DNA from: a virus
Lineage: Duplodnaviria > Caudoviricetes
IMG/VR virus record: IMGVR_UViG_3300034053_000029
Span: 64,001 to 128,000 of that record
DNA length: 64,000 nucleotides
Direction: 5' to 3' (one strand)
The notes below the pieces were generated by a model. The model was not told the DNA's origin and did not search any database. It saw only the letters and a program-made list of their open reading frames with translations. Position numbers and translations under genes: made by a program. The first letter of the stretch is position 1. Each line of letters opens with the position of its first letter. Shown one piece after another: positions 5,836 to 57,805 of the stretch.

Positions 5836-5912
5836 GATAAATAATAATGCTAGTCACGAAGCGTCAACTTCTACTAGCCCTAGACATTCTAACAACTTGA
5901 AAGGATCAAATT
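5836..5912 (+). promoter_or_regulatory. Late promoter plus conserved structured leader, copy 1
   Basis: GATAAATA; GCTAGT-CAC-GAAG-loop-CTTC-T-ACTAGC; CTAGACATTCTA; AAAGGA SD. Confidence 0.75.
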
Positions 5913-6743
5913 ATGTCCAGCACCAGTATTTATCCATCAACGAAGATCGTTCCTTATGTTTATAAGTTGACTCATAAAGTCACTAAACAATTTTACTTTG
6001 GTGTTAGGTTTAGTAAAAACCAAAAACTACCATCGCACATCGATTTAGGAACACATTATTTCACATCATCGAAATGCATCAAACAACTTGGTTTTGATAA
6101 CTTTGACACCGAAATCCTAGCAGAATTTCCTTTCGACGGCGGAAGAATTGATGCTTACTTACTTGAACAACAATTAATCGAAGAGAACTTCTCAAATTCA
6201 CTCATCTTGAATAAGAACATATCAAAAACCAATAAAGGTTCTTTTTACTTTTGGATGCACAAAGGATCAACTTGTCAAGCAATCTCAGATGCAAACAAAG
6301 GCAGGAAATTAAGAGATTATGATTACAAACATTCGCTAGAAAGTAAAAATAAAATTAGCGAAGGTGTTGGTCGTAAATGTTCTTGCATATTATGCAAAGT
6401 CGAACTATCATCAATTACATCACTTAAATCACACTTCAAAAGTTGTTTTGAAGATTGGGAATCGATGCAGTGTTTATTCCCAAACTTAAATCAAAAGAAA
6501 CATCTCATCAAACCAAAAAGAATTAAGTCGCCCAAAATTATAAAACAAAAGCGAATCAAAAAAGAATTTAACAACTGTTTAGAATGTCAATCTAAAGTAA
6601 ATCGTCGTTCTAAAAAGTTTTGTAATTCGTCTTGTGCAGCAAAATACAACAATAAACTAAGACCCAAAGGGCACGAATCAAGAATAAAAAGCAATGAATC
6701 GAGAATAAACAAATTAAAATCTAGGTGTGCGTCTAATCTCTAG
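5913..6743 (+). CDS. GIY-YIG-like homing endonuclease with C-terminal zinc module
   Basis: PYVYKL...FYFGVR...YFTSSK; CLEC...FCNSSC module. Confidence 0.8.
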   Translation: MSSTSIYPSTKIVPYVYKLTHKVTKQFYFGVRFSKNQKLPSHIDLGTHYFTSSKCIKQLGFDNFDTEILAEFPFDGGRIDAYLLEQQLIEENFSNSLILNKNISKTNKGSFYFWMHKGSTCQAISDANKGRKLRDYDYKHSLESKNKISEGVGRKCSCILCKVELSSITSLKSHFKSCFEDWESMQCLFPNLNQKKHLIKPKRIKSPKIIKQKRIKKEFNNCLECQSKVNRRSKKFCNSSCAAKYNNKLRPKGHESRIKSNESRINKLKSRCASNL

Positions 6744-6768
6744 AAAATAAACACACACCTAAAATTTT

Positions 6769-6990
6769 AACAAGCAGACTTCTTTCCGACAATACTTTCA
6801 CATAATAAGGGACGACTCGAACGTCCATCGTCGGCTTGAGCGCCGATCTGCCTCCCAGCACTTATTCCACTACTGGCATCATCTTCGATCTGTCTTTTGC
6901 TTGTTGATCAGACAAGTGCTTTATCGTTCTTACCCAATCTCAGGCGACCGACTTGAACGGTGCATCGAACTATGTCGCTTCACAGCGAGA
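6769..6990 (-). ncRNA. Large structured RNA, 5' segment, containing a tRNA-like domain
   Basis: TCGC-TGTGAA-GCGA; CCG-TTCAAGT-CGG T-loop hairpin; AACAAGCA/TGCTTGTT closing 6769-6905; T-arm GGACG-TTCGAGT-CGTCC. Confidence 0.55.
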
Positions 6991-6995
6991 TATTT

Positions 6996-7086
6996 TGGTG
7001 GGGCATGGACGGAATCGAACCTCTTGCCTAGAAGGACTGCGTTTACAGCGCAGCGGCGACACCAGTCTGCCCTTATTGCACACCCC
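6996..7086 (-). tRNA. tRNA-Tyr(GTA), enlarged D-arm
   Basis: CTGCG-CTGTAAA-CGCAG; V-arm; A73-CCA. Confidence 0.88.
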
Positions 7087-7094
7087 AAATTTAT

Positions 7095-7498
7095 TAGCGG
7101 AGAAGTACCATCTTCTCCTTTCACCTGTACTCAGGATCACCTTTTGGGCGTGACATTAACTGTTTGGTAATGTTGCCTCAGTGGATACCAACCACCTTAC
7201 TAGAGGTTACAGTAGCATTGTCTACTCAACAATAACAGTCAAATTTATTACGCACTCTTTTGAATGCGGATTGTTAAGTATTCTTGAAAGAATCGAACTT
7301 TCGTCCTACCCGCCCCCTGCCGGAAAGCCTCAGACACCATTTAAGAACACTTAACAATCGGTGGCTCGATCACTCACACCACCTGATGTTTTCGATCTAT
7401 CTCCCACGATAGCTTCTCAACACCCTCCGACTTTTCACACCATGTTTTAAGTGCGGTGCCTGGCCTCGTTACCAGATAACTTAACACACTCTGCTACT
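7095..7498 (-). ncRNA. ~400-nt structured RNA of unknown class at the head of the tRNA operon
   Basis: 17-bp helix 7269-7359 enclosing T-arm GAAAG-TTCGATT-CTTTC; terminal GGAGAAG/CTTCTCC; no credible minus-strand ORF. Confidence 0.55.
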
Positions 7499-7506
7499 GA
7501 GACTAC

Positions 7507-7535
7507 ATTTTATTCTACTTCTGAAACCTTGTCAA
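7507..7535 (-). promoter_or_regulatory. sigma70-type promoter for the RNA operon
   Basis: TTGACA-N17-TAAAAT. Confidence 0.8.
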
Positions 7536-7648
7536 TAACTATTTTGGTACTTCTCTTTCCGTTTGAAGGAACCCTTACCCTTCTTGGAACCAACAACACG
7601 CATCCGGTACTTTGGAGTGCGAAGGTCTTTAGCGATTGGGTTTTTCAT
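7532..7648 (-). CDS. arfA: ArfA-like alternative ribosome-rescue factor (38 aa)
   Basis: KYRMRV...KKGKGSFKRK matches the ArfA KGKGS core; start re-called at ATG 7648. Confidence 0.7.
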   Translation of the reverse strand: MKNPIAKDLRTPKYRMRVVGSKKGKGSFKRKEKYQNSY

Positions 7649-7649
7649 T

Positions 7650-7766
7650 TTACTTACCTTTAGCAAAAAGTGTATAACCAGAAACCCGTTGCAACACAAC
7701 CACCGCAAGCATATTATTAACACATTTCCACTCACGATGCACAGGATTAAAAACGTAGTATTTCAT
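7650..7766 (-). CDS. 38-aa hypothetical (MKYYVFNPVHREWKCV...)
   Basis: GAGG SD; TTGACG-N16-TAAAAT upstream at 7804-7831. Confidence 0.55.
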   Translation of the reverse strand: MKYYVFNPVHREWKCVNNMLAVVVLQRVSGYTLFAKGK

Positions 7767-7856
7767 TTCCGTATTCCTCTTGTTGCGTCATTCGATGGAA
7801 CGAATTTTACTCTCTTTTAAACTTTCGTCAACTACTTTCGTAAGTGACTGATTTAC

Positions 7857-7890
7857 AAAAGAAAAACCCGAAACTTTTTGGGTTTCGGGT
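7857..7890 (-). terminator. Rho-independent terminator
   Basis: ACCCGAAAC/GTTTCGGGT hairpin followed by TTTTTCTTTT. Confidence 0.8.
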
Positions 7891-7949
7891 CATCTTTGGT
7901 GCCACATTTTTTACTTTTAAGATGACCCTACATACAATCTCCCTGCTCG

Positions 7950-8040
7950 GAATACGCACGACCAAAGAGACTAACTGGCATTGGATTATGCCATAAGTTA
8001 GTTCTAATTGTAGTGGGTATGCGTTTCATTGGTCTTTTTA
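7950..8040 (-). ncRNA. Candidate pseudoknotted RNA after a CATAAATA box (8079-8086)
   Basis: GACCAA/TTGGTC enclosing ACTAAC/GTTAGT and TGGCAT/ATGCCA; loop ACGCAT pairs with downstream GTGCGT. Confidence 0.45.
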
Positions 8041-8122
8041 TTCCTAAAAATTTATATGATTCTATTATACTTATATGGTATTTATGTAAATTGGGATTTC
8101 TCTTACAAACTGTTACAACTCT

Positions 8123-8307
8123 GGATGGAGTTCGTGATATAACCCGCACTACAGGGAATGTCTTTCACATTCAGTCATTGGCGACTTTTACCAATTAGCA
8201 GATAGTCTTTCCTACCAGTCAACCGTCTTTCCAGTTTGTCATCCACTTTTAGGATTTCTCCCTACTTATGATATTAGAATGTCTTTTTATTTTTGCAGAA
8301 TCCATCC
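8123..8307 (-). ncRNA. Candidate ~185-nt late structured RNA
   Basis: GGATGG/CCATCC closure; ACTG-GAAAGA-CGGT and GAATGT-GAAAG-ACATTC hairpins; exact TATAAATA at 8315-8322. Confidence 0.5.
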
Positions 8308-8330
8308 AATTGTTTATTTATACTACCTGA

Positions 8331-8549
8331 TTACTTGAGAACTGCAGACTTCATTCCACGATGACCACGCCAATGAATCTTTGCATTACCTGCCTTGGTG
8401 TATTCTACCTTGGAAACAGTTACGGTGCGTGGAAGATGAAGTTTCTCCTGAGTGCCGTTATCGTTAATGCGAGTTCCTGCAGGAATCATAACCTTTGATC
8501 CTTCGGAAATCATTGACTTGATGGTTTGGGTGGTTTGTGTTGTCTTCAT
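8331..8549 (-). CDS. Hypothetical protein
   Basis: AAAGG SD; 72-aa ORF on the main coding strand. Confidence 0.7.
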   Translation of the reverse strand: MKTTQTTQTIKSMISEGSKVMIPAGTRINDNGTQEKLHLPRTVTVSKVEYTKAGNAKIHWRGHRGMKSAVLK

Positions 8550-8622
8550 ATGTGATACCTTTCATAATAAATGTCGCAGTTTAAAAAGAAAGCTAGTTTG
8601 CGACATGACTAGCATTCGGAAA

Positions 8623-9000
8623 TCAAATTTTCTTTAATCCATTAATATGATCTTCACTATCCATTGTATCGGAGTGCCACATCTTATGCAGAAAATCATG
8701 GTTCAATCTAATCCAATCTTTCACTTTCTCAACATGATCAGAGGGGATTTTTACTTGTCCTGCTCTCTTTTGTGGATCATGCTCAATTGATAGGGAAAAA
8801 GAATCATCAAAATCAAATTTACCTTTAGTGTTTGAAACTTTAACTCTTGGGCCATGTTTTGCTCCACCTTTACCAGACACAAATATTGGATATTCTAATC
8901 CAGTATGCTTCGATGCCAAATTTGTCATCTCATAAAGAGACATTTGATCCGGAGCGATTATGTTATATATTGCCTCGTATAGTTGAGAAACCTTGTCCAT
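8623..9000 (-). CDS. Hypothetical protein (HGPRVKV motif)
   Basis: AGGA SD; 125 aa. Confidence 0.75.
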   Translation of the reverse strand: MDKVSQLYEAIYNIIAPDQMSLYEMTNLASKHTGLEYPIFVSGKGGAKHGPRVKVSNTKGKFDFDDSFSLSIEHDPQKRAGQVKIPSDHVEKVKDWIRLNHDFLHKMWHSDTMDSEDHINGLKKI

Positions 9001-9003
9001 ATT

Positions 9004-9288
9004 TTATCCTAGCCTAGATGACAAATCAAGACCAGATGTTTGTTGCAGATATGCAGTTTCAATTTGAAGTGGCGCTTCGATCTTAGTGACGATTGCGCCA
9101 ATAGCAATACTGACGGTTTCATCTGGTGCTGACATGATGTATGGAACTAGTGCTGCTCCCATACCTTGTTGGGTTTGCATCATTTGGAACACACGAGGCT
9201 TTTCATAAACCATACCAAACACTTCTCCAACCTCTCGTGCGATTACTTCCTCGCCGCTAACCAACTTAATAACAACTATATCACTCAT
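9004..9288 (-). CDS. T4-like conserved small Sm-like-fold protein
   Basis: VIKLVSGEEVIA N-terminus typical of T4-like phage ORFs. Confidence 0.75.
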   Translation of the reverse strand: MSDIVVIKLVSGEEVIAREVGEVFGMVYEKPRVFQMMQTQQGMGAALVPYIMSAPDETVSIAIGAIVTKIEAPLQIETAYLQQTSGLDLSSRLG

Positions 9289-10231
9289 TTATAATCCTTT
9301 CAATATCTAAAATACATTTTTGTTTTTCGGCATTCGCCATTGAGAGGATTTCTTTTGACCACGAAAATCCATCCAACATTTTTACTTTCGATAGTATATC
9401 TGCACCACTAGAAACAATCAAGTCTTTCGGGAAAATATTTTCATAACCAGAAAGCGTTAATGTGTTTAGACAATCAGCATCAAATAGAAGAGGAACATTA
9501 CTATTCAATGCTTCATAGAATCGATTCGCAAGACAGCTATAATCAGTATGCGTTGTCTTATCTTCAATATACAACGACGCTGCATATTTTGTCAATCCAC
9601 CAGAAAGAATATCTAGTCTAGGGATGAATCTAGAATTTACTCCAATTTCCCTAAATTTGTCGATGTTCTTTTGGTGCGTCGATGTTATGCAAGATGGAAG
9701 ATACTTAACAAACGACTCGGCACGATCTTTTCGATAAGCTCCATAGTAGCAGCACCACTTAATTTTATCATCAAAGAAATCGCTCAGAAAGCTAGATTGG
9801 AATGTTGAAGTCAAATTCGGATCAAAAATTAACGCATTCAAATTTGTCACTTCCCACCTATCAATCCACTTGGTGTTTGCCTTTAATGAATACTCCATCT
9901 TGTGATTTGCAATCACGGTATATTTCTTGTCTGCCTCTTTGACGTAAGCCCACAACAACATCGACTCACCTAGCACATAGTCATTACTCAAGAAGAATAA
10001 CTTTGCATTGGGACTATTCTTTACCCAATCGGTACTAACAAAAGAATATGCGCTTGAATGACAAAATATGATTACATCATAATCCGATTTTATATTATCG
10101 TTGACCGTTGGGTATGACCAGATCAAATCTCCACCAAAATGATCGGCAAGTATTTTGGCATTTTGCCAATGCAATGATACCTGTGGATTGCTGTTACTCG
10201 ATTTATGAGAATCTATAATTAATATTTTCAA
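9281..10231 (-). CDS. GT-B glycosyltransferase resembling T4 beta-glucosyltransferase
   Basis: MKILII N-terminus; YYGAYRKDR and NRFYEAL..NVPLLFD resemble BGT motifs as I recall them. Confidence 0.6.
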   Translation of the reverse strand: MKILIIDSHKSSNSNPQVSLHWQNAKILADHFGGDLIWSYPTVNDNIKSDYDVIIFCHSSAYSFVSTDWVKNSPNAKLFFLSNDYVLGESMLLWAYVKEADKKYTVIANHKMEYSLKANTKWIDRWEVTNLNALIFDPNLTSTFQSSFLSDFFDDKIKWCCYYGAYRKDRAESFVKYLPSCITSTHQKNIDKFREIGVNSRFIPRLDILSGGLTKYAASLYIEDKTTHTDYSCLANRFYEALNSNVPLLFDADCLNTLTLSGYENIFPKDLIVSSGADILSKVKMLDGFSWSKEILSMANAEKQKCILDIERIINE

Positions 10232-10872
10232 ACTGAACCTTTCAAGTGCTTTGAAATTTCGTTATACCGTTGAGCAACCTTTTGATCATACCCGTTTGGT
10301 GCAGCATTCGATCCATTGTAACATAACAAGGCAGAACTTGTCGACTTGAACTTGGAAAGACAATCCTTCAAGACCCATGACCCCAAGTAAATGTTCGTAT
10401 GGATATCAAATAATTCTGGAGTTCCAATATCCTTGATTGCTGCCTTTAGCTTTGACAGATGCCATGATGGAATGACTTGCATCACTCCCAAGGCACCTGC
10501 ACCACTAATGCTATGCTTATTGAACGTGGATTCGACCTCTTGAACTGCTAGAACCAGACGGTAATCGACACCAAACTCTTCAGACCACTTGAGACTAGAC
10601 TTTGCAATTTGAATTGCGTCAGCATCATCGATCTTCTGATTTTTATTTTTAATGTAGTCTACCACCTTTTGCGTCGTTGTTTTTTGATAAAATCCTGCAG
10701 CCTCTATCGCTTGATTATACATATGACTTGAGGTCTCTTGGGTGACACTTGTACCACCAATAAACACACCAATCAGCATACCAATCTTGATGCCACGCAG
10801 AAACTTGTTCTTTAATACATACTTGCCATTTTTAAAGTAATACTCTCCCAACGATGGAATCGTTGTTCCCAT
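10228..10872 (-). CDS. Lytic transglycosylase (SLT domain) with N-terminal membrane anchor
   Basis: VQEVESTFN...SGAGALGVMQV...NIYLG..L..YN. Confidence 0.9.
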   Translation of the reverse strand: MGTTIPSLGEYYFKNGKYVLKNKFLRGIKIGMLIGVFIGGTSVTQETSSHMYNQAIEAAGFYQKTTTQKVVDYIKNKNQKIDDADAIQIAKSSLKWSEEFGVDYRLVLAVQEVESTFNKHSISGAGALGVMQVIPSWHLSKLKAAIKDIGTPELFDIHTNIYLGSWVLKDCLSKFKSTSSALLCYNGSNAAPNGYDQKVAQRYNEISKHLKGSV

Positions 10873-10882
10873 TTTACTTCTC

Positions 10883-11086
10883 CTATCGAATGATTACTCC
10901 GACTTCTGGATCAAATTGGATTTTTGCAGGTACAAGAGTACCGTTTCCATCGTCCATCAAAACATTGGGTGGTTCAAATCCAGAACCAACTTCTAAGCGC
11001 CCATTCGCCTTAGCCCATACAAAGTAATCGTAGTTAATTTGCTGAAGTTCCTTGATAAAGGAATCCAGAGATATACTATTTAGCAT
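10883..11086 (-). CDS. Hypothetical protein
   Basis: 67-aa ORF coupled to neighbours. Confidence 0.6.
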   Translation of the reverse strand: MLNSISLDSFIKELQQINYDYFVWAKANGRLEVGSGFEPPNVLMDDGNGTLVPAKIQFDPEVGVIIR

Positions 11087-11648
11087 TATGAATTCCCCAA
11101 CTTAGTGCTTGATTATAGAATGAACGAACCGACTTGTCAATGATAGCGATGTTTTCGTATATCATATTCTTTTGGATTTCACGAATCCTCTCGGAAAATG
11201 TCGTACAAATTGCCGCCTCTGCTAGTGCAGTCTCATGGTCATTCACGATACGCATACCCAATTTCTTAGCAATGGTTTGCATGGGTTTGTTATCTCGCAA
11301 ACACTCCATAACTAGCTTAGTGACACCTGATGCCTTGCACCAAGTGATAATACGCTTCATTAGATCGACACCTAGACCTTTGCCCTTATATTCATCAGAA
11401 ACTGACATACCAAGTTCATATTGGTCGGAATCGACTTTACCTAGATGAACGAAGGCAACTAGATTTGCTCCAGAGAAACACCCAAAACACACATCACCAT
11501 TCCATCGAATACGCTCGACATAAGATTCGATTCCAACATTGGTAATATTGGAAAAGAATCGTAGTCTACGGTCATCCTCATTGAGAGCAAACAAATGATC
11601 TAGAATTTGATGATCATTGGTTTCATTCAATTCACAAATTGGTAGCAT
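11076..11648 (-). CDS. GNAT-family acetyltransferase
   Basis: RRLRFF; ELGMSVSDEYKGKGLG motif A; DNKPM. Confidence 0.85.
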   Translation of the reverse strand: MLPICELNETNDHQILDHLFALNEDDRRLRFFSNITNVGIESYVERIRWNGDVCFGCFSGANLVAFVHLGKVDSDQYELGMSVSDEYKGKGLGVDLMKRIITWCKASGVTKLVMECLRDNKPMQTIAKKLGMRIVNDHETALAEAAICTTFSERIREIQKNMIYENIAIIDKSVRSFYNQALSWGIHNAK

Positions 11649-11655
11649 ATATGTC

Positions 11656-11889
11656 CTATGAATATTTTAATAGTAAAAGTATAAAGGCATTTTCTTCCAT
11701 TTCAAACCAATCGTCGCCAGAAAGTTCGGCTCGATATGAATTGGATGGTCTCGGCATCGTCTTCGCATTATGTTCGGTGATGAACATCTGCCAAGGAGAT
11801 TCATAACCAGCGGCAATATATCCTTGGACAATTACATCTTTGAACTTCTCCGGAAGATGCTCTTGCCAACAACGAATAATATTAGCCAT
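11656..11889 (-). CDS. Hypothetical protein
   Basis: 77-aa ORF, coupled. Confidence 0.65.
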   Translation of the reverse strand: MANIIRCWQEHLPEKFKDVIVQGYIAAGYESPWQMFITEHNAKTMPRPSNSYRAELSGDDWFEMEENAFILLLLKYS

Positions 11890-12913
11890 CGTTTTTCAAG
11901 AGCCAACTATTACTGATTGCCTTGAATGAAGTCGATCCATCAACCGCTTTGAACACTACTCCCTCACGAGACTTTGCATTCAGTGATGGGCCTTCTGCAT
12001 ACTTTAGAATGTCATCGACCGTATTCAATTCAAGATCAGACAATCGATCAAAGTTAGCAAGGATAGGAACGTGCTTCAATCCAAATTGCTTACATAATTC
12101 TTGTCTACGAGCAGTTGACAGATATTCACATTCAACTGGATCATATATGTCAAATACATACAGGTCTTGTCCCTTGATCCCTTCCTTGTTTCCTTGGACA
12201 CCTTCACCAATCAATTCGCCACTGATTTGAATTGGTCGACCATACGCCTTCAGTTGTTCTTCCAAGTTATATTTCTTGCATACTTGAACAAACGAATTAC
12301 CTTCCTGATCCGTCTTGAGATTCATATTACGACTACAAACGGTGTAAGTCAGGTCGTTGACCAATCCAACAGAGCAAGATGATCCATCGAGTTTGATCGT
12401 GACTTCATACTCATGCTGCTTCAAGTAATAGAATTCTTTGTTAGAAAATCCTTGGATGCGCTCTTGATCGGTCTTGCGCCACTCGGACGGGAAATTACCA
12501 CGAACCGTTCCAGATAGACAAGCAGCAATTGGTGCTTCCCACTTTTGAATACGCAGTTCATCGGTAACATCTTCACCTTCAACAAAGATAGGAGATAGTG
12601 CATGATCTACCAATAATTCAATTGGTAGAATCAAACCTTGACTGATCTGACCACGCAGTTTTACTGTACGAAGACGCTCGCCCTTCACTCCGTTGTATTC
12701 TCTTGGGAAAGCACCTTTCGACAAGAACGGAGCAAGTTCAGTAGGAACCCAAGAATCGATTTCCAGATAGATAACCAGATCACCGATATTGAACTCACCA
12801 CGCTTGACAACAACCCACCAAGAATTGATCTGCGCTTTTTCAATTGCGTCTGCCCCCTCGATAGGTTGAATATCTACGATCTTTTGAATGGATGCTAGTT
12901 TACGTTCAGTCAT
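11882..12913 (-). CDS. RNA ligase, Rnl2/DRB0094-type, with N-terminal OB fold
   Basis: KLDGSS motif I; ISGELIG; EGVVFK; FKAIS. Confidence 0.9.
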   Translation of the reverse strand: MTERKLASIQKIVDIQPIEGADAIEKAQINSWWVVVKRGEFNIGDLVIYLEIDSWVPTELAPFLSKGAFPREYNGVKGERLRTVKLRGQISQGLILPIELLVDHALSPIFVEGEDVTDELRIQKWEAPIAACLSGTVRGNFPSEWRKTDQERIQGFSNKEFYYLKQHEYEVTIKLDGSSCSVGLVNDLTYTVCSRNMNLKTDQEGNSFVQVCKKYNLEEQLKAYGRPIQISGELIGEGVQGNKEGIKGQDLYVFDIYDPVECEYLSTARRQELCKQFGLKHVPILANFDRLSDLELNTVDDILKYAEGPSLNAKSREGVVFKAVDGSTSFKAISNSWLLKNDG

Positions 12914-12915
12914 TA

Positions 12916-13122
12916 TTAATTCGCCTTAGTCACCGAGGTCTTGAACAGGAAATTAGACAAAATATACAAACCCCATGCTTGCAGTAAAGTAATTTCACTC
13001 ACACCTGCAACCACACCAACCAAACAATAATTCCACAGCAGCATAATAGGGATTGCAAGCAATATACCAAATACAATTACCAAAGCAATAAACATCACAC
13101 CAAGAATAGCACCTTCTTTCAT
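12916..13122 (-). CDS. Small membrane protein
   Basis: Hydrophobic; start re-called at ATG 13122. Confidence 0.7.
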   Translation of the reverse strand: MKEGAILGVMFIALVIVFGILLAIPIMLLWNYCLVGVVAGVSEITLLQAWGLYILSNFLFKTSVTKAN

Positions 13123-13132
13123 TTTATTTCCT

Positions 13133-13279: not shown

Positions 13280-13280
13280 A

Positions 13281-13409: not shown

Positions 13410-13422
13410 TTCAATCTCCCAA

Positions 13423-13941: not shown

Positions 13942-13961
13942 ATCGTTAGTTGATGGGATGA

Positions 13962-13990: not shown

Positions 13991-14011
13991 CAACTTTCGT
14001 AAGTGGTTGAT

Positions 14012-19692: not shown

Positions 19693-20142
19693 ATGTGGAA
19701 ATACAAAGGCAAAGAAATCACTGATGAAGACATTAAAGAATCTTATATCGGATTCATCTACCTCATTACTCAAAAATCTACTGGTAAAAAATACATCGGT
19801 AAAAAACTTCTAACTTCTGCTGCAACAAAAACTGTCAACGGAAAAAAGAAAAAGATCAGAAAACCTAGTGACTGGAAAAATTACTGGTCATCGTCACCAT
19901 CCATCAAAGAACTCATAGAGCAATGTGGAGAATCGGATTTTGACCGTGAAATCTTAGTGTTCTGTTCTAGCAAAGGATCACTCCTATATAACGAAGAAAT
20001 GGCACTATACATGGTTGGTGCATTAGAAGATGATGTATGGATAAACGCAAACATCCGTAGTAAAGTTTATTCTTCTTGGGTAAAGAAAGACGAATCAGTT
20101 GAACTAAGACAAACCATTAGGGCATTATCTATTTCAGCTTAG
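19693..20142 (+). CDS. GIY-YIG endonuclease
   Basis: GFIYLIT...KKYIGKK; DWKNYWSSS; REIL. Confidence 0.85.
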   Translation: MWKYKGKEITDEDIKESYIGFIYLITQKSTGKKYIGKKLLTSAATKTVNGKKKKIRKPSDWKNYWSSSPSIKELIEQCGESDFDREILVFCSSKGSLLYNEEMALYMVGALEDDVWINANIRSKVYSSWVKKDESVELRQTIRALSISA

Positions 20143-21435: not shown

Positions 21436-21734
21436 ATTGAAACACTTTCCCCGTTAGTTGATATTGATATCGATTTTATTTCATTATTTTCATAATGTAT
21501 CAAATATTTAACACCATTTCTTTCAAATTCTAACCCATTCATCATATCAAAATAAAAGAAACCACGATCTAATATTTTATATAGGGACGAATTTATATTC
21601 TTGTTAGATAAATCTAATGTTTTAATAGCAGAGAGTATGAGATTTACATAACTAGAATCTATAATGTCTAAAAAAGGAATCATGGACATTATAGATTCTT
21701 GGTCGAACTTGCCGTTAATTACGGAGTCTTTCAT
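21432..21734 (-). CDS. Hypothetical protein
   Basis: 100-aa coupled ORF. Confidence 0.65.
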   Translation of the reverse strand: MKDSVINGKFDQESIMSMIPFLDIIDSSYVNLILSAIKTLDLSNKNINSSLYKILDRGFFYFDMMNGLEFERNGVKYLIHYENNEIKSISISTNGESVSI

Positions 21735-21955
21735 GCTTCTAGCAATAGCTTAGAAATATTTTCCACGCCACCTTGAATCAACATTCCATCTTGGTAGAAT
21801 TGTGGAACTGATCTATGACCTTCGGACAAAAGAAACTCTCTAGCAGAAAGAGTTTCATCTATCTTTATTTCGTTAAATTGGATGTTCTTAGAACGTAGTA
21901 TCATTTTCGCACTATCACATGCAGGACAATTGTTTTTTGAATATACTGTAATCAT
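21731..21955 (-). CDS. Glutaredoxin (NrdH/NrdC-like)
   Basis: CPAC; RSVPQF. Confidence 0.9.
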   Translation of the reverse strand: MITVYSKNNCPACDSAKMILRSKNIQFNEIKIDETLSAREFLLSEGHRSVPQFYQDGMLIQGGVENISKLLLEA

Positions 21956-21980: not shown

Positions 21981-22053
21981 TATAAATATACTTGTGGATC
22001 ACGGTTCTGTCAAACCCATCCACTCTAGACATTCTACATTGAAAGGAACCAAT
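21981..22053 (+). promoter_or_regulatory. Late promoter plus conserved structured leader, copy 2
   Basis: TATAAATA; GTGGAT-CAC-GGTT-loop-AACC-C-ATCCAC; CTAGACATTCTA; AAAGGA. Confidence 0.78.
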
Positions 22054-22839
22054 ATGTCCAGCGAAACTATTTATACATCAGAAAAAATTCTCCCATACGT
22101 CTATATTTGTATCCACAAAACCACCGAAGAGTTTTATATCGGATATAGAAGTGCAAATAAAGTTCCATCTAGCGAAGATTTGGGTAAAGTATACTTTACT
22201 AGCTCGAAACGAGTAAAACCAATATTCGAAGAATTTAATTTTTACATTATAGCAGAATTTTTTGATTCTAACGATGCATATAACCACGAACAAACTTTAA
22301 TAAAAGATCATTTTAATGATGCTCTATGTATAAATCAACACTACATTTCTCCAGACAATTTTTACGGTAAATTTAATCCAGGAACAACAAAAATAAGTAG
22401 AGAAAAAGCAAAAAGTAGAATGTTGTCTGAACACAATCCTTGTTACAACCAATCAAAAGAAACTAAGAATAAATTATCTAGTATTGTTTCGCTCAGAAAT
22501 TCAAAATTAACATCGGATGAAAAGAAACTAAAGTACGGCAATTATGCCGAAACCAATGGATTCTACAAAAAGAAGCATTCAGAAGACACAATTTTGATAT
22601 TAAGAGAGAAAAACACTAGATACGAATACAAATTAATTTCACCATCAGGAGAAATTTTTACAACATTATCTCTTAAAAACTTTTGCAATGAACATAATTT
22701 AAATAGACAGAGTTTAAATAGATTTATGAATAAAGGAAAAGTACCACCAGCTAGAATTGACGCAAAAGAACAAAGAATCAACACAAGCGGGTGGGAAGTA
22801 TGCATATTAAATGAGACACCCACCCGCCATGCAAGATAG
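22054..22839 (+). CDS. GIY-YIG-like homing endonuclease
   Basis: PYVYIC...FYIGYR...YFTSSK; NUMOD-like FYKKKHSE; start ATG 22054. Confidence 0.82.
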   Translation: MSSETIYTSEKILPYVYICIHKTTEEFYIGYRSANKVPSSEDLGKVYFTSSKRVKPIFEEFNFYIIAEFFDSNDAYNHEQTLIKDHFNDALCINQHYISPDNFYGKFNPGTTKISREKAKSRMLSEHNPCYNQSKETKNKLSSIVSLRNSKLTSDEKKLKYGNYAETNGFYKKKHSEDTILILREKNTRYEYKLISPSGEIFTTLSLKNFCNEHNLNRQSLNRFMNKGKVPPARIDAKEQRINTSGWEVCILNETPTRHAR

Positions 22840-46849: not shown

Positions 46850-46903
46850 CAGTGAATATGCCTAAAAGATAAATACTTAATATAGTCAAAATTGGAGATA
46901 ATC

Positions 46904-47878
46904 ATGGACAGAACACCATACACATATTTAGTAGGTTGGTCAAATTTAAATAAATGGTATTACGGCAGAAGGACTGCGAAAGGGTGTAGTCCATCCGATT
47001 TATGGGTAAAATATTTCACAAGTTCAAAAGAAGTTATTAAATTTAGAGAATTAAATGGCGAACCTGATGTAATAGAGATAAGAAAAGTATTTTCAAATGC
47101 AGATTCATGTAAAAAGTGGGAATCTAAAGTTTTACGAAGAATAGACGCTCAACATAATGAATCATTCTTGAATAAAAAGAACGGCGATGAAAATTGGGAC
47201 ACTACTGGAAGAACCGATTTGGGAAAATATGAAAGAACGGAAGAGATCAGACTTTCTATGAGTAAATTTAGACTTGGTAAGGCGAACGCATTTAATAGTA
47301 TAACAGGAGAATTTATAGGATTAATAAGCACATCAGACCCAAGATGGGAAACCGGAGAAATATATGGAAATACCAAGAATATGAGACACTCAGAAACATC
47401 AAAACAAAAAATGTCTAATCATAGACTTGGTGTGAAAATGCCAAATGGATTTGGGGATAAAATATCAAATGCTTTGTCGGGGAAACCAAAAACGGAAGAA
47501 CACAAAAATAAAATGAAAGAATCTAGATTGAGACTGATTGAATCTGGATGGTCATATTCTCACACAGAAGACACGAAAGAAAAATTAAGAAAGCCAAATA
47601 ATAAAAACAAAGGACTTGCTGCCGCCAAAGACGCAAAAACTGGAGAATTATTAGGCAAAATTAAAATTGATGATCCAAGATGGGAAACCGGAGAGATTGT
47701 AGGGGTATTGAAAGGAATACCATCTACAAATAGTTCTTCATTCAAAAAGAACTCAGCATCAGCAAAAACTAACACCGGAATCCCACTTGGAAATGTTTCT
47801 TTAGATGATCCAAGATGGGAAACCGGAGAGATTGTAGGAATACGAAAAGTTATTCAGTCAACATCTGTTTCTGAGTAA
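46904..47878 (+). CDS. GIY-YIG-like homing endonuclease with three DPRWETGE repeats
   Basis: PYTYL...WYYGRR...YFTSSK; GATAAATA at 46868-46875; GGAG SD. Confidence 0.82.
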   Translation: MDRTPYTYLVGWSNLNKWYYGRRTAKGCSPSDLWVKYFTSSKEVIKFRELNGEPDVIEIRKVFSNADSCKKWESKVLRRIDAQHNESFLNKKNGDENWDTTGRTDLGKYERTEEIRLSMSKFRLGKANAFNSITGEFIGLISTSDPRWETGEIYGNTKNMRHSETSKQKMSNHRLGVKMPNGFGDKISNALSGKPKTEEHKNKMKESRLRLIESGWSYSHTEDTKEKLRKPNNKNKGLAAAKDAKTGELLGKIKIDDPRWETGEIVGVLKGIPSTNSSSFKKNSASAKTNTGIPLGNVSLDDPRWETGEIVGIRKVIQSTSVSE

Positions 47879-50513: not shown

Positions 50514-50515
50514 AA

Positions 50516-51600: not shown

Positions 51601-52586
51601 TTCATGCTATCCAATTCAGATACATCAATTCCAAAGTAACTTGCAACAATGACCTTCTTCACAAAGTGACCAGTTTCGTTTCTCCAACATCCAACGGAGT
51701 CATCGAACCAGTACTTGTCATTATCGTATGATTCATCGGTCTCGTCAAGGTCTTGATCGAAATCTTCCTCATAATACTCGGTTGCATCATAATTAACGAC
51801 AGACTTGGTGGTGAAATCCTCACTCTCAAGTTGCTTGCGCCACTCGACGTTATTAACCTCACCAACGACTTCATACTTGCAGGTACGACCCTTGGCATTA
51901 TTATAATCGTTAGGGATAGACACAACGTCAGCAGGATTAATTTTAACGAGCATACAACGGCTATCGTTGGTCTGACCGTAGTGTGGCAGGTATCCCTTGC
52001 TGCAAAAGTGAAGTCCTGATGAGCAGGTGTTGGTGCGCTTGTCATCTACTTCAAAACGCTCCATTTCACAAACGGCACCAACAGAATTATCGAACTTAAC
52101 AGAATAGATATCTAGGTAATCATTACGGACGATCTTATACGCAATGAAATGTCCATCTGGTGTGATTGGAAGTTCGCTTTGTTCTAGGAACAGGAACAAT
52201 TCATCGATAGCGGTCTTGGAAGGATTCTGATACAGGTTCTCGATAAAATTAACCAGTGGGGCAGTATCAAACCCCTCGGTTGACATTTTGATTGCCTTTG
52301 CCACGATAGCATCGGCAAGGTCGTATGACTTGAAACTATTCTGAAACGTGATCTTACCAATTCCGTTGTTGATAGTAATTCCGACCTTACCAGACGAACT
52401 AGCAAACGAAATCTTGCTCATGATAACCTTGGTGTCCATTGCTTCTGCCTTGTCATACTCACCGGCAGCAACGAATTTCTTAAATTGCTCAAAACGTGGA
52501 TCGGAGCAGAACACGCTAAACTGATTTCCAGTAGCGATGTTGATAAGGGTGATTTGATCGTCATTCATGAAAAAAGTGTAGCTCAT
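51597..52586 (-). CDS. rIIB: rIIB protein
   Basis: NPS....ELFLF; ITPDGHFIAYK; CSSGLHF; KINPADVVSIP. Confidence 0.92.
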   Translation of the reverse strand: MSYTFFMNDDQITLINIATGNQFSVFCSDPRFEQFKKFVAAGEYDKAEAMDTKVIMSKISFASSSGKVGITINNGIGKITFQNSFKSYDLADAIVAKAIKMSTEGFDTAPLVNFIENLYQNPSKTAIDELFLFLEQSELPITPDGHFIAYKIVRNDYLDIYSVKFDNSVGAVCEMERFEVDDKRTNTCSSGLHFCSKGYLPHYGQTNDSRCMLVKINPADVVSIPNDYNNAKGRTCKYEVVGEVNNVEWRKQLESEDFTTKSVVNYDATEYYEEDFDQDLDETDESYDNDKYWFDDSVGCWRNETGHFVKKVIVASYFGIDVSELDSMK

Positions 52587-52589
52587 TTT

Positions 52590-54665
52590 TTAAACTCCAG
52601 TAGTAAGAAGGTAGGACTTCAAAAGATCATCAGGAACATCGTTTACTTCAAGATACTTAACCAACGGATACGCATTATATACCTTTTCTTCGATTGAAGC
52701 AAGAGTCATGAACTCGCTAGGTTCAACAATTTTCTGCTTCAGCAACTCGGCAAGCTCAGTCAGTTTTTCGTACTCAGCAGAACTCTTATAAGAATTCTTA
52801 TACTCATCAATAAGTTTCTGCCACATCTTAGACATTTCATTCCAAACAGAATCTGAATCGGTAGTAACGCCTTTCTTCATTAAACAGTTGAAATCGTTCC
52901 AATTCGATGCCGCCTTGATCGATTCTTGAGATATAACATGAGCATCAATGAAGGCAACCGTATTCTTTTCGTTGAAATCTTGTTTTGCGAACTCAACAAT
53001 CTCGATACACTCATCTGGAATTTCCGTACCAGTTTTCAAACCAATCAAAACAACATTCCTCGATTGCTTATAGAAACGAACAAGAGGCAGTTGAGCTTCA
53101 AGGATGGAATCGAAAGAGAACGAACTATCAAAGTGGAAGGCAACCAAATCCTTATCAGAATTTTCCAAAAGGTCTTGTGCTTCATCCTCGGTATAACGGA
53201 TAAATGAATTTGAACGAATCTTCCAAAGACCAGACTTTTTAACAACATCATCCTTGTTGCGCTCTCGCTTTATTGGTTCGGCAAGATCGGATGCCTTAGT
53301 GACAAACTGTTGCAATTCAGACGGGATAACGAAAGACTGAGGGACAATCATCGTGGTGTAACCAACGCACCATGAACGAACCCTTGACTTAGTATTCTTG
53401 ACATCATCAACAACAATCTTGATCGTATCAAGATCACTGATACGCAGGTTAAGGTTCTTGGTATTGTCCTTATGATTTGTTTCTTCAGTAATTTTGTGAG
53501 TCTTGAAGCAGGTGAAATTCGGCTTGAGTTGAGAAATCTTTGCCGTACCATCAAACACACTAATGCCGTCTGTATTGACGTTTGACAACGTGTAGATATG
53601 CAGATTGCGTTCTGTAATCGTACCAAACGTAGCACACTTCACAAACGGAATGATCTTTGATGGAGAATTAACAAAGATTTCCCTACCGACCTTTGCGACG
53701 TTTTTATAAAAGTCTAGCTTATCGATGGACGATGCAACTTGAGCATCAACCCAATTCATAAACTCATCACGCATAACTTGCAAACGGTCTTTGATGTTCT
53801 GAATCGTGTACTTCGTATATTGAAGTTGCTCACGAGATAGTGACGTTTCCAAAGTTCCAACAGGGAAATCAAGTTCCATGTCGAAGTTGAGCATATTCAT
53901 AAGCTCAGGGGTAAGTGCCTCTTCCATCGTGCGCTTATCAACTTCGTAACCACGTTGTGTAGTTACAAAAATTGCCTTGGAGTAGTAACCACCACCATTC
54001 TTGATTCTCCAACCATTACCAGATACAACAAACTTTGGGGTGTCGAAGTGTACGGTATGACGTTGAATATTAGGACGCACTTTGTAGTGCTTAAACACTT
54101 CAGCAACTTCGGACTTCCATGAGTACGAATTACTAGCACTCACCGGAATGATTACCTCAATGCCAGATTCTTCATCGGTATCTTGTGAGCGAATCTTAGT
54201 AAGTGAAGGAACTCCACGCCCATCGATGAACACAAGGTACTCTGAGCATACACCTTCAAAACGAGAAATTACCGTCCATGTGCTAGTAACAGCAGCAGGT
54301 GACTTGCTACCGATACCATAGGCACCGATAAACTCATTAGAATCAGTCTTGGTGGATTCACCGTAGGTAGTGAGAAGATTGTATACCGCATCTTCACTCA
54401 AGCCTGGGCCATAATCACGAAAACGGATGTTGTTATCCATGTTCGTTGGCATATACAAGTCCCAAGGACGATCTTGATTACCATTCAATACATGGGCATC
54501 ATTACAATTGGCACCAATCTCATACAGGACGGCACGTTGCTTGTTAGAATACAGAGAAGTAGACAACATAGCAAACAGCTTGCTGCTGTTGCTAGAGATA
54601 CCAAATTCCTTTGCACCAGAAATGTTGGTAAGAGTTCCACTTGCTGCTGCGCCATTGAGTTGCAT
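52590..54665 (-). CDS. rIIA: rIIA protein (GHKL-like N-terminus)
   Basis: LYSNKQRAVLYE..NCNDAH; RDYGPGL; YGESTK; GAYGIGSKSP. Confidence 0.93.
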   Translation of the reverse strand: MQLNGAAASGTLTNISGAKEFGISSNSSKLFAMLSTSLYSNKQRAVLYEIGANCNDAHVLNGNQDRPWDLYMPTNMDNNIRFRDYGPGLSEDAVYNLLTTYGESTKTDSNEFIGAYGIGSKSPAAVTSTWTVISRFEGVCSEYLVFIDGRGVPSLTKIRSQDTDEESGIEVIIPVSASNSYSWKSEVAEVFKHYKVRPNIQRHTVHFDTPKFVVSGNGWRIKNGGGYYSKAIFVTTQRGYEVDKRTMEEALTPELMNMLNFDMELDFPVGTLETSLSREQLQYTKYTIQNIKDRLQVMRDEFMNWVDAQVASSIDKLDFYKNVAKVGREIFVNSPSKIIPFVKCATFGTITERNLHIYTLSNVNTDGISVFDGTAKISQLKPNFTCFKTHKITEETNHKDNTKNLNLRISDLDTIKIVVDDVKNTKSRVRSWCVGYTTMIVPQSFVIPSELQQFVTKASDLAEPIKRERNKDDVVKKSGLWKIRSNSFIRYTEDEAQDLLENSDKDLVAFHFDSSFSFDSILEAQLPLVRFYKQSRNVVLIGLKTGTEIPDECIEIVEFAKQDFNEKNTVAFIDAHVISQESIKAASNWNDFNCLMKKGVTTDSDSVWNEMSKMWQKLIDEYKNSYKSSAEYEKLTELAELLKQKIVEPSEFMTLASIEEKVYNAYPLVKYLEVNDVPDDLLKSYLLTTGV

Positions 54666-54668
54666 GAT

Positions 54669-54890
54669 TTAGCCTTTACGATAGAGATTAAAATTTACAC
54701 CAGACCAAACTTGTTGAACTTGCTCAAGTTCGTCCGACACAACGAATTCTACTCGCTTCTTTTTTGTCTGTCCATCGATATTTTCAAGTGTCTGATTCTT
54801 TTCATCTTTTCCGTAGCTTCCTCGAACTAGGACGGCATTCGGATTGTTGAATTGGAGAGACTTGCGCTCTTGTAGTGTAGTTAGCCACAT
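54669..54890 (-). CDS. Hypothetical protein
   Basis: AGGAG SD; extended -10 TGTTATAAT upstream. Confidence 0.6.
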   Translation of the reverse strand: MWLTTLQERKSLQFNNPNAVLVRGSYGKDEKNQTLENIDGQTKKKRVEFVVSDELEQVQQVWSGVNFNLYRKG

Positions 54891-54954
54891 AATTGAACTC
54901 CTGTAGGGTTAATGGAGTCCGAATTATAACACAATCAAACGACCATTGGCTAAG

Positions 54955-56658
54955 TCATTGAATCGTTGTGAAATTGTTCTTCTTAACTAACTTTAACGTC
55001 TGATCGAACTTATCTGCAATGTTCTCTCTATGTGAGACAACAAACACATTATTGTTCTTCATAGCCTTCAAAAGCTCAATCGTCAAGTCCATTCCATTAC
55101 CGTCCATCGAACTATCGACAATTTCATCTAAGATGATTAGATTAGTATTAATGGAATTTTTCATCGTAGCAATTGTTCTCCAACAGAAGATCAATGCCAT
55201 ATCGATTCTCTGACGCTCCCCTTGACTAAAGGAATCGTATGTGAATGTATCACGATGCCTAGACTTAATGACTTCGTTGAAATTTTCATCAAGGTTGAAG
55301 TTGACGAACAATTCCAATTTGGACAAATGTTGGTTCACCATTTTGTTTATTGTTGGGACATATTGCTTAACGATCTTTGATTTTATTCCGCTGTCATGAA
55401 GGAACCCTTGGGCAACCGATTGTAATTCTTGTTGCTCTAAAAGTTCTTTCTTTTGTTTATCTAGCTGAACAATTTTCTTAGCCAAATCTTTTAGCTTTGA
55501 TTTGTCTGGTGGATTTTGAATCTCATCTTCAAGTGCCTCTAGTTGAGAATTCACCTTCTTCAAAAGAAGATTGTTCCCATAAAATTGTTCGTTCAATGTT
55601 CTCATCGATTCGTTACATGAGGTTAACGATGATCTAGTATTATCATATCCTGAGATACTTACTTTCAACGCATCTTCCTTGTAAACCAAATCGTCCAATT
55701 GTTGTTGTAATTTTAATATGCTAGATGAAAGATTCTGTCTAGCAATATCCTTAAACTCTTTTGGTAGCTTTTGATTACATGATGAACATTCATTAACATT
55801 ATCGATATCGTCCAAATCGGACTGAACTGATGATATTTTTGATATGATTGCCTTCTTTTTGGATGTCAATCCAGATAAAGATTCTTCTAACTCAGACAAC
55901 TCATGCAATCTGGTTGTAAGTTTTTCATGATCTGCATCTAGTTTAGATAACTCGTCTTTAATCCTCAATGTATCGGCATTGATTCTAGACTTTTCATCCA
56001 ACAATATTGTTTTGTTTTCTTCTGTTGAAGAAGATTTCTCTTTAATTTGATTCGATATTAATTTGGCAACCTCCTTCTTCGCAGCTAACTCAACATCAAC
56101 TATTTTCAACGTATCTTTCGTTGTTTTGATTTGACTAGATAGCATTTTATTCATAGCGGAAAACACACGAATATCCAACAAATCTTCGATGAACTCTCGC
56201 CTATGTGCAGAATCTAGTTTCATGAATGGAATATATGCAGCACTACCCATAACAACAACTTGGGTGAATGCTCTATAATTCATTTTCAATATTTGCTGCT
56301 CCAATACCTTTTGATAATCCTTAACATTTGGGTCTTGGTTTATCAGATCGCCATTTTGATAAATCTCAAACGTGTTTGGCTTTATCCCTCTAATCACCTT
56401 ATACTCAGTCTTACCAATCGAAAACTCAACAGTAGAAGAACACTTTTTTTGGTTTATGGAGTTGACTAATTGTGGTTTTGTAATTTTCCTATACGCCTTA
56501 CCAAAAAGACAAAAGCATAATCCATCAAGCATAACACTTTTACCAGTACCATTTGGTGCGGTTATAAGGGTAGTATTAGCTTTATTCAAATGAATGGTGA
56601 CTGCAGAATTTCCAATAGACATAAAATTCTGCAGAGTAATCGATTTAAATATAATCAT
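54955..56658 (-). CDS. 46: Recombination endonuclease ATPase subunit (gp46, SbcC-like)
   Basis: PNGTGKS; coiled coil with CSSC hook; FSQGE; LDE; SH. Confidence 0.95.
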   Translation of the reverse strand: MIIFKSITLQNFMSIGNSAVTIHLNKANTTLITAPNGTGKSVMLDGLCFCLFGKAYRKITKPQLVNSINQKKCSSTVEFSIGKTEYKVIRGIKPNTFEIYQNGDLINQDPNVKDYQKVLEQQILKMNYRAFTQVVVMGSAAYIPFMKLDSAHRREFIEDLLDIRVFSAMNKMLSSQIKTTKDTLKIVDVELAAKKEVAKLISNQIKEKSSSTEENKTILLDEKSRINADTLRIKDELSKLDADHEKLTTRLHELSELEESLSGLTSKKKAIISKISSVQSDLDDIDNVNECSSCNQKLPKEFKDIARQNLSSSILKLQQQLDDLVYKEDALKVSISGYDNTRSSLTSCNESMRTLNEQFYGNNLLLKKVNSQLEALEDEIQNPPDKSKLKDLAKKIVQLDKQKKELLEQQELQSVAQGFLHDSGIKSKIVKQYVPTINKMVNQHLSKLELFVNFNLDENFNEVIKSRHRDTFTYDSFSQGERQRIDMALIFCWRTIATMKNSINTNLIILDEIVDSSMDGNGMDLTIELLKAMKNNNVFVVSHRENIADKFDQTLKLVKKNNFTTIQ

Positions 56659-57713
56659 TCAAGGGTACTCATAGCCTCTAGGTATAGGGATTTCATCATA
56701 GATTTTAATTTAGGTTTGTCTGCGTCAATGTTCGCCTGATCAATATATGACTCAACCAATGAGAGGGAATCCTCAGTAGCTATGTCATCGTCATCCACAT
56801 AAATGTCACAAAACTCTTCTACTATCTTAAAATCTGCTGCACCACAATTATATAACAGGTCAACCAACAAATCAAACTGGTATGGGTCGGTTTTCTTAAC
56901 AACTACCAACTTGACATATTTTCCTTCTAAGCCAGAAGTATCAAATGTCTTCCAGTATGAAGTGCCTTGGTTTTCGTCATTCCACTCAATTTTATGAAAC
57001 AATGAATACTCATTTCGAATAAATCGTTTAGAATGAGAAACAGTGTCTAGAATGAGAAACCCTTTTTTATCGTCGTAGTCTGCCCATGTAAACTCGAAAG
57101 GACTTCCGGTGTAGTAAATGTTGTCGGAATGTGACCTATGATGATAGTGCCCACTATACACCATTCTAAACGATTTGAATATGTCTTTACTCATTCCTTC
57201 GGTTGCTGTATGACCAACGTACATGTCAAATCCGACAAGTTCAAGATGCCCAAAACAAATTGAATCTTTGCTCGACTTAATGAACTCGGAAACATCAGCT
57301 TCATTATCTTGACATATCCAAGGAATGAATGAGAAAGAATTTTCTCCCAAAATGCTTGTTTTGGGAGTGTCATATATTACGATATTGTCATAATGACTTA
57401 GGAATAAGTCAATGGTGTTTGCTTTCAACGTATGCTTAAACGGACAATCGTGGTTTCCTACCAAAACGTGCATTTTGATTCCACTAGCAAGAAGTGGGTC
57501 AAAGAACTTCTCTTTCCATACGTCCAGAGTTTTATGGTTGGTGTATTGTCTCCTATCGAACAAATCACCAAGACAAACAAAGTCGGTTATGTTATGGTTC
57601 AACAGATATGGGATAAATTGGTCGTTGAGGAATTTCAACTGATAATTCATTAAATGAATCGAATCGTTCCTGCCCCCAACGTGAAAATCACCGATTACTC
57701 CCACTTTAGACAT
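56655..57713 (-). CDS. 47: Recombination endonuclease subunit (gp47, SbcD-like)
   Basis: GDFH; GDLFD; GNHD; GHL; SGHYH. Confidence 0.95.
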   Translation of the reverse strand: MSKVGVIGDFHVGGRNDSIHLMNYQLKFLNDQFIPYLLNHNITDFVCLGDLFDRRQYTNHKTLDVWKEKFFDPLLASGIKMHVLVGNHDCPFKHTLKANTIDLFLSHYDNIVIYDTPKTSILGENSFSFIPWICQDNEADVSEFIKSSKDSICFGHLELVGFDMYVGHTATEGMSKDIFKSFRMVYSGHYHHRSHSDNIYYTGSPFEFTWADYDDKKGFLILDTVSHSKRFIRNEYSLFHKIEWNDENQGTSYWKTFDTSGLEGKYVKLVVVKKTDPYQFDLLVDLLYNCGAADFKIVEEFCDIYVDDDDIATEDSLSLVESYIDQANIDADKPKLKSMMKSLYLEAMSTLE

Positions 57714-57724
57714 ATATTAATTCC

Positions 57725-57805
57725 TATAAATAATAATGCTAGTCACGATGTAATCAGCATCTACTAGCTCTAATCATTCTACCATCAACTCTAAGGAGAG
57801 TCAAT
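57725..57805 (+). promoter_or_regulatory. Late promoter plus conserved structured leader, copy 3
   Basis: TATAAATA; GCTAGT-CAC-GATG-loop-CATC-T-ACTAGC; CTAATCATTCTA; AAGGAG. Confidence 0.78.

Follow-up and report, generated by a model that had tools for sequence, protein, structure and literature searches.

Facing late promoters and a predicted antisense RNA in a repeated cassette at the start of phage homing endonuclease genes

Three homing endonuclease genes of a T4-like phage begin with copies of a cassette of about 100 bases, in which a conserved fold lies between two late promoter boxes that face each other. The cassettes occur in bases 64001-128000 of an IMG/VR virus record that is 210,171 bp long and has terminal repeats; this stretch of 64,000 nucleotides is referred to as the window. 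By gene content the genome is T4-like, encoding gp47, the late sigma factor gp55, ribonucleotide reductase, a transfer RNA (tRNA) cluster and a T4-type terminase. The fold fits the strand opposite the nuclease gene better than the gene strand. Based on the arrangement of boxes, helices and complementary segments, we think that the second promoter probably makes a small antisense RNA that restrains the nuclease, as RNA-OUT does in IS10. More tentatively, we propose that the cassette belongs to an undescribed portable class widespread in T4-like phages, in which each nuclease messenger RNA (mRNA) is paired with a cognate antisense RNA and, the hairpins having diverged from copy to copy, this RNA is its private repressor; this we regard as a serious possibility, somewhat short of probable.

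Cassette structure and covariation

A preliminary description of the window reported, at each of the three sites, a late promoter followed by helix P1, a CAC bulge, helix P2, a loop containing TCA, the second strand of P2, one pyrimidine, the second strand of P1 and a fixed tail. All three sequences agree with this order, and the hairpin is recovered for each window copy by RNAfold. The proposal that it is a covarying, conserved structure is well supported: among 30 distinct copies, compensatory changes are observed at all 10 P1/P2 pairs and 96.3% of the cells are paired. None of 500 shuffles reaches this level, and pairing in slid controls is 26-47%. Both stems are almost purely Watson-Crick. 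Several details require revision. The TCA in the loop is not conserved across copies, and CAC, present in the three window copies, is one form of a family consensus C-R-C. The middle base of this bulge covaries with the pyrimidine on the other side (G:C 29, A:U 23, A.C 11, G.U 0), indicating that the two bases pair and that the helix runs on through two single bulged bases, the only invariant ones. The lone pyrimidine is thus present as described and is not unpaired. In copy 2 the bulge A stands opposite C, which corresponds to a G.U pair on the antisense strand.

The tail also has a partner. Its sequence CUARNCAU pairs with AUGN'CCAG, formed from the start codon and codons 2-3, to give a third helix, P3. 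Covariation links N in the tail to the base that follows ATG (U:A 24, A:U 19, G:C 1, A.C 3), and in the genome copy at 12922 the outer C:G pair is replaced by U:A. Among copies selected by the hairpin only, the commonest form of P3 is CUAAUACU:AGUAUCAG, a second register in which the loop of 6-8 nt contains the GG of the ribosome site and the ATG lies one base past the helix. In these copies, the inner four or five pairs are highly variable (UACU:AGUA, GGUC:GACC, CGUC:GACG and AUCU:AGAU). The CATTCTA half of the tail, initially reported as fixed, is limited to one sub-class, and the tail pairs as P3. The shared protein start M(S/T)SxxIY, part of the same description, is seen as well, and is explained by the P3 helix together with the antisense late promoter described below. 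In the window sub-class the start codon has moved into P3, which accounts for M(S/T)SxxIY in place of the MxIY of the other sub-classes.

We considered three other roles for these segments. The tail could act as a plain anti-Shine-Dalgarno sequence; the UUCU:AGGA pairing is weak, and the covariation points to the start-codon helix instead. The P2 loop could form a pseudoknot with sequence further downstream, but the two are no more complementary than shuffled controls. A leader peptide could begin at an ATG overlapping P1, but this ATG is absent from many copies and is located upstream of the late start. One deletion variant, at 6373-6454 (- strand) of the related IMG/VR locus L057, has a P1 3' strand, GGUCAU, that fits either the P1 5' strand AUGACC or the start region AUGACC; the two alternative helices are mutually exclusive.

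Facing late promoters

Extended by one base on either side, the conserved codons ATT TAT give the T4-type late promoter TATAAATA in reverse complement. In T4-like phages the late box occupies positions -13 to -6, with poor conservation of its first T (PMC1524935). Among 45 hairpin-only copies, TATTTATA (the reverse complement of TATAAATA) is found 6-7 nt past the end of P3 as an exact match in 22 and with at most one mismatch in 39, compared with a background of 0.12% and 1.6%, respectively. In all seven cassettes of the genome, NATAAATA is separated from the antisense P3 start by exactly 5 nt, while the motif occurs 79 times in 210 kb. The spacing is constant whether the ATG lies inside P3 or past it. 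A T precedes ATTTAT in 40 of 41 copies, although the codon to which it belongs encodes at least seven different amino acids. The box and its spacing are read directly from the DNA; antisense transcription is predicted to begin one base ahead of the antisense P3, at the G facing the C of CAGC.

Two T4-type late promoters would thus face each other, 65-90 bp apart, around the structured segment. From the left one, the nuclease mRNA would start at the first P1 base or close to it; the right one, hidden in the first nuclease codons, would start the antisense RNA. With only 3 nt between the sense box and P1 in the largest sub-class, the mRNA there would lack the first P1 bases.

The genome has only 79 ATAAATA sites, 18 on the + strand and 61 on the - strand, and the seven cassettes account for 14 of them. 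Unlike in T4, almost all genes, whether of early or late type, are on the - strand.

The fold fits the strand opposite the nuclease gene

On the gene strand, the P3 cells that are not Watson-Crick comprise 93 A.C or C.A oppositions and 3 G.U pairs; the third position of P3 invariably has A opposite C. Read on the opposite strand, these A.C oppositions, and those of the similarly biased bulge pair, are G.U wobbles. In the antisense orientation, 99.1% of 566 cells pair and double-sided changes are observed in 15 of 19 pairs (30 hairpin-selected copies). The mean folding energy is -17.8 kcal/mol for the antisense strand and -12.3 kcal/mol for the sense strand, the antisense strand being the more stable in 57 of 58 copies. 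P3 is part of the best fold in all 58 copies on the antisense strand and in 25 of the 58 on the sense strand.

This asymmetry bears on the possibility that the functional RNA is the sense leader. Its 5' hairpin would stabilise the late mRNA, and P3, stacked on P1, would mask the start codon or ribosome site, either as a constitutive damper or as a site for a protein, with the antisense box incidental or secondary. RNA masks of ribosome sites are a known control of T-even homing endonucleases (PMC2988022), the late promoter places +1 at P1 in the window copies, and P3 includes the AUG, whose pairing is 0.62 compared with 0.47 when the tail is shuffled. The sense fold is the weaker one, however, with A.C where the antisense strand has G.U, and in the largest sub-class the mRNA would start past the first P1 bases. 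A function on the sense strand only also leaves unexplained the antisense TATAAATA at a fixed distance, the T at a synonymous site and the A-run upstream of P1. We therefore consider a sense leader unlikely.

The predicted antisense RNA and its 3' end

The antisense RNA predicted from the second promoter would be about 65-90 nt long and consist of two hairpins, P3 first and then P1/P2 with two single-G bulges. Its P3 apical loop would present CCU or CUCC, the complement of the ribosome-binding site; in the three window copies, CCUU is located in the first apical loop on the - strand. The predicted RNA covers the ribosome site in all copies, plus the AUG in the window sub-class. Its complementarity to the mRNA would be perfect along the leader and the ribosome site and, in the window sub-class, through the start codon. 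We suggest that it pairs with the mRNA and holds nuclease translation down, possibly helped by RNase III cleavage or by promoter collision.

A U-rich stretch follows the second hairpin. In sub-class ii, which includes the genome copies at 12922 and 50816, a run of A6-7 directly upstream of P1 serves no evident purpose on the sense strand; read on the other strand, it yields a hairpin followed by U6-7, which is terminator-like. In the window copies the second antisense hairpin is followed by the complement of the sense promoter (UAUUUAUA). In copy 1, P1/P2 is the 3' hairpin on the antisense strand, followed by AUUAUUAUUUAUC.

Whether the transcript ends there matters for another interpretation, that the antisense promoter mainly restores late transcription of the downstream host gene (gp47, the glutaredoxin-like gene or the tRNA region), with the hairpins serving as a stabilising 5' leader. 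The seg and mob genes of T4 carry promoters for downstream genes (PMC2988022), the antisense promoter is co-directional with the neighbouring genes in six of the seven genome copies, the next start codon is 25-38 nt past the hairpin in copies 2 and 3, and the window copies have no clear terminator. The copy at 140010 argues otherwise: located past the terminase gene and in the same orientation as it, its antisense promoter faces no gene, yet the box, the 5-nt spacing and the fold are all kept. Furthermore, the canonical hairpin and U run of sub-class ii would stop the transcript, and the ribosome-site complement in the loop would have no explanation. A promoter for the host gene is, in our judgement, quite improbable as the main function. 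A separate role for the hairpin, as a terminator of host transcription on the - strand, is unlikely for copies 2 and 3, because the ribosome site of the next gene lies within 25-38 nt and leaves no space for a promoter.

Several observations count against antisense control itself. A simple terminator scan of the three window copies found nothing; the sequence is AU-rich, with no canonical U tract. Antisense transcripts in the window may continue into gp47, the glutaredoxin-like gene or the tRNA region: read-through on the - strand would enter the glutaredoxin-like gene at 21731-21955 from copy 2, and gp47 starts at 57713, 25 nt past the hairpin of copy 3. Both promoters are of the same late class, a design with no obvious timing switch. 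In P1/P2 the counts of G.U and A.C are balanced at about five each and leave the strand undecided, so that the strand assignment rests on P3 and the bulge pair. Selection for a weakened sense fold could also yield A.C on the sense strand. Finally, fetching many of the copies by sequence pattern biases some alignment columns; the key counts were taken from hairpin-only scans to limit this bias.

Table 1. Features of the cassette copies. Positions are those of the window, except for the genome cassettes, which are numbered on the complete record.
Feature	Positions	Strand	Details
Copy 1 sense late promoter	5836-5843	+	GATAAATA; predicted +1 G5849, the first P1 base
Copy 2 sense late promoter	21981-21988	+	TATAAATA; predicted +1 G21994
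Copy 3 sense late promoter	57725-57732	+	TATAAATA; predicted +1 G57738
Copy 1 hairpin	5849-5878		GCTAGT-CAC-GAAG-loop-CTTC-T-ACTAGC; P1 5849-5854/5873-5878, CAC 5855-5857
Copy 2 hairpin	21994-22023		GTGGAT-CAC-GGTT-loop-AACC-C-ATCCAC; P1 21994-21999/22018-22023
Copy 3 hairpin	57738-57768		GCTAGT-CAC-GATG-loop-CATC-T-ACTAGC; P1 57738-57743/57763-57768
Copy 1 tail	5880-5891		CTAGACATTCTA
Copy 2 tail	22025-22036		
Copy 3 tail	57770-57781		CTAATCATTCTA
Copy 1 P3 first strand	5880-5887		CTAGACAT; partner 5913-5920
Copy 1 P3 second strand	5913-5920		ATGTCCAG; start codon and codons 2-3
Copy 2 P3 first strand	22025-22032		CTAGACAT; partner 22054-22061
Copy 2 P3 second strand	22054-22061		ATGTCCAG; start codon and codons 2-3
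Copy 3 P3 first strand	57770-57777		CTAATCAT; partner 57806-57813; two A.C on sense, G.U on antisense
Copy 3 P3 second strand	57806-57813		ATGACCAG
Copy 1 ribosome site	5901-5905		AAGGA, in P3 loop
Copy 3 ribosome site	57793-57798		AAGGAG, within inner hairpin loop
Copy 1 predicted antisense late promoter	5927-5934	-	sense reads TATTTATC, i.e. GATAAATA on -; 5-nt spacer; +1 G opposite C5921
Copy 2 predicted antisense late promoter	22068-22075	-	sense reads TATTTATA, i.e. perfect TATAAATA on -; 5-nt spacer; +1 opposite C22062
Copy 3 predicted antisense late promoter	57820-57827	-	sense reads TATTTATT, i.e. AATAAATA on -; 5-nt spacer; +1 opposite C57814
Copy 1 predicted antisense RNA	5836-5921	-	5' end 5921; two hairpins, -23.3 kcal/mol, z-score -3.15
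Copy 2 predicted antisense RNA	21981-22062	-	two hairpins, -21.8 kcal/mol
Copy 3 predicted antisense RNA	57725-57814	-	two hairpins, -22.1 kcal/mol
Copy 1 homing endonuclease gene	5913-6743	+	276 aa; phrog_314, NUMOD3
Copy 2 homing endonuclease gene	22054-22839	+	261 aa; phrog_314; sub-threshold Pfam GIY-YIG
Copy 3 homing endonuclease gene	57806-58468	+	220 aa; NUMOD3, phrog_15526/314; between gene 55 and gene 47
Genome cassettes	12919, 50816, 59834, 69845, 85990, 121734	+	covariance model
Genome cassette	140010	-	covariance model

Copies in the genome and in related phages

One cassette is located at the start of each of the three nuclease genes in the window. A fourth was found in the genome by an exact match to the tail, and a covariance model built from 30 copies brought the total to seven. 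A pattern scan using the tail and the first codons gave 37 IMG/VR loci, nearly all of which have the hairpin; with looser and hairpin-only scans, approximately 100 distinct copies were collected from uncultured IMG/VR phages. The covariance model has 67 matches in the fetched IMG/VR loci. Related contigs carry two or three cassettes apiece, and P1 is common to the copies of one genome. No known RNA family accounts for the element: at the Rfam 15 gathering score only tRNAs reach the threshold in the window, and in five loci the element is unmatched in Rfam up to an E value of 10. A BLAST search with the cassette and the copy 1 gene against 50,697 GenBank phage records gave no real match, the one hit being 44 nt long with an E value of 0.3.

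In the related IMG/VR phage L023, a transfer-messenger RNA gene of beta-proteobacterial type (7780-8151, - strand; Rfam RF01850, 124.6 bits) lies beside a cassette; its type hints at a beta-proteobacterial host.

Nuclease genes and insertion sites

The proteins encoded downstream of the window cassettes match the 'homing endonuclease' family phrog_314 with E values of 1e-17 to 7e-7. Pfam GIY-YIG matches are sub-threshold (E values of 0.002 and 0.014), and the best PDB profile match is to the GIY-YIG domain of UvrC (E value of 0.047). The motifs YVY...FYFG...E...N are visible in the nuclease proteins. All three genes are on the + strand, opposite to all their neighbours, so that no sense transcription unit is apparent upstream of them. 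Of 80 related loci, 79 have a gene 55 homologue upstream of gene 47, and in nearly all of these the two are immediate neighbours; in the window, a 727-nt insert with cassette 3 separates the two genes. This presence and absence of the insertion suggests that the nuclease is of the free-standing mobile type.

The preliminary description raised the possibility that the element travels with otherwise divergent nucleases, and this is supported: the cassette precedes three GIY-YIG-like phrog_314 subfamilies (NUMOD3) as well as one phrog_655 endonuclease, and it sits in an insertion that relatives lack. We suggest that it moves as one unit with unrelated nuclease genes. The phrog_655 case, at 59834-60545 of the genome and thus outside the window (also L116 and L339), has a P3 partner that is the spacer between the ribosome site and the ATG.

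Mobility of this kind raises the question whether the element acts as DNA, as a recombination or mobility module or as a single-strand hairpin recognised in homing, with its conservation due to cassette exchange. The sharing of the cassette by unrelated nucleases, the common P1 within a genome and the almost purely Watson-Crick P1/P2 stems would all fit. Against this, compensatory changes in three helices and the strand-specific wobble point to selection on a folded single strand and not to duplex homology, and the constant distance of the promoter boxes from the ends of the helices speaks for transcripts. We regard a DNA element as very improbable. Improbable to a still greater degree is the initial suggestion of a sense leader serving as a ligand-sensing riboswitch or as an autogenous operator bound by the nuclease, for which the invariant bulged bases and the fixed tail are the only features in favour: the fold fits the opposite strand, start-region pairing accounts for the tail, two bulged bases alone are invariant with nothing resembling a ligand pocket, Rfam has no match, and the element accompanies unrelated nuclease families, which counts against an operator for the protein encoded downstream.

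Comparison with known systems

The closest parallel to the proposed antisense control is the RNA-IN/RNA-OUT system of IS10/Tn10. There, an outward promoter inside the 5' end of the mobile element's nuclease-type gene makes a small, stably folded antisense RNA, RNA-OUT, complementary to the mRNA at its 5' end and ribosome site. The cassette appears to share the antisense promoter within the 5' end of its target, the complementarity over the ribosome site and the conserved antisense fold. It differs in its setting, a phage with T4-type late promoters and a homing endonuclease gene, and the sequences are unrelated. Its fold, known here from sequence, has two hairpins, of which the bulged second one would double as terminator. 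Mirror-image sense and antisense hairpins, bulged stems and loops that present the target complement are features of R1 CopA/CopT and hok/sok. The cassette resembles these systems in all three respects and differs in target and context; loop-loop kissing may occur in the cassette by analogy.

In the T-even masks of I-TevI, I-TevII, I-TevIII, segB and Aeh1 mobE, the late transcript starts inside a hairpin and thereby escapes the ribosome-site mask (PMC2988022). The cassette likewise belongs to homing endonucleases of T4-like phages, with a late promoter directly upstream and an RNA helix at the translation start. Its structure, however, is entirely downstream of the sense start: the sense +1 is at or just inside P1, upstream of both P3 strands. 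In addition, a second late promoter faces the first, the fold fits the antisense strand, and in the window there is no evident upstream sense unit to supply an early or middle read-through transcript. An expressed antisense RNA linked to a homing endonuclease gene is described for a T4-like phage, namely CfrI of cyanophage S-PM2 (Millard et al. 2010, cited in PMC5931967). As presented in the citing source, CfrI is a single locus beside psbA and not a repeated portable cassette, and in that account we found no shared fold or sequence.

Repeated promoter-hairpin modules flanking variable genes occur elsewhere in T4-like genomes. The PeSL cassettes of T4-type phages, reportedly described by Arbiol and colleagues in 2010, are said to be short repeats of an early promoter and a terminator stem-loop, proposed as recombination sites. 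The present cassette is similar in being such a module; PeSL differ in that they have no two promoters facing each other and are not linked to the starts of nuclease genes.

To our knowledge, restraint of free-standing homing endonucleases in their own phage is known for a few T-even genes only, through hairpins escaped by late transcripts or through protein autorepression. If the antisense proposal is correct, a portable antisense-RNA cassette would be a third mechanism, linking phage nucleases to the antisense control long known for transposases; for homing endonucleases it would be comparable to the antisense control of transposons or to a type I antitoxin system. The odd N-terminal peptide shared by unrelated nucleases would then be a translated promoter and helix, in a compact overlap where one 8-mer is both promoter and codons and another both promoter and terminator tail. 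The element would also constitute a new RNA family usable for annotating uncultured phage genomes. As the cassette contains a plain T4 late box, and gp55 of T4 recognises TATAAATA, the proposal should be testable in T4-infected E. coli.

Other genes and cassettes in the window

Fourteen tRNA genes are located on the - strand at 1077-5369 and 5458-5820, and cassette 1 lies in adjoining sequence free of open reading frames, as does T4 segB. A second, different cassette (186-279) precedes a nuclease-like gene on the + strand (ATG at 277, phrog_23051). It contains ATAAATA at 186-192 and, at 194-250, two strong hairpins (-22.5 kcal/mol, z-score -4.65), for which the sense strand is the more stable; after the hairpins, immediately ahead of the ribosome site, comes TATTTATT, which reads as a late box on the other strand. 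A fourth gene of GIY-YIG type (46860-47878, phrog_5123/314) has the late box ATAAATA and no hairpin cassette, and the + strand gene at 19693-20142 (phrog_447/7363) likewise has no hairpin cassette.

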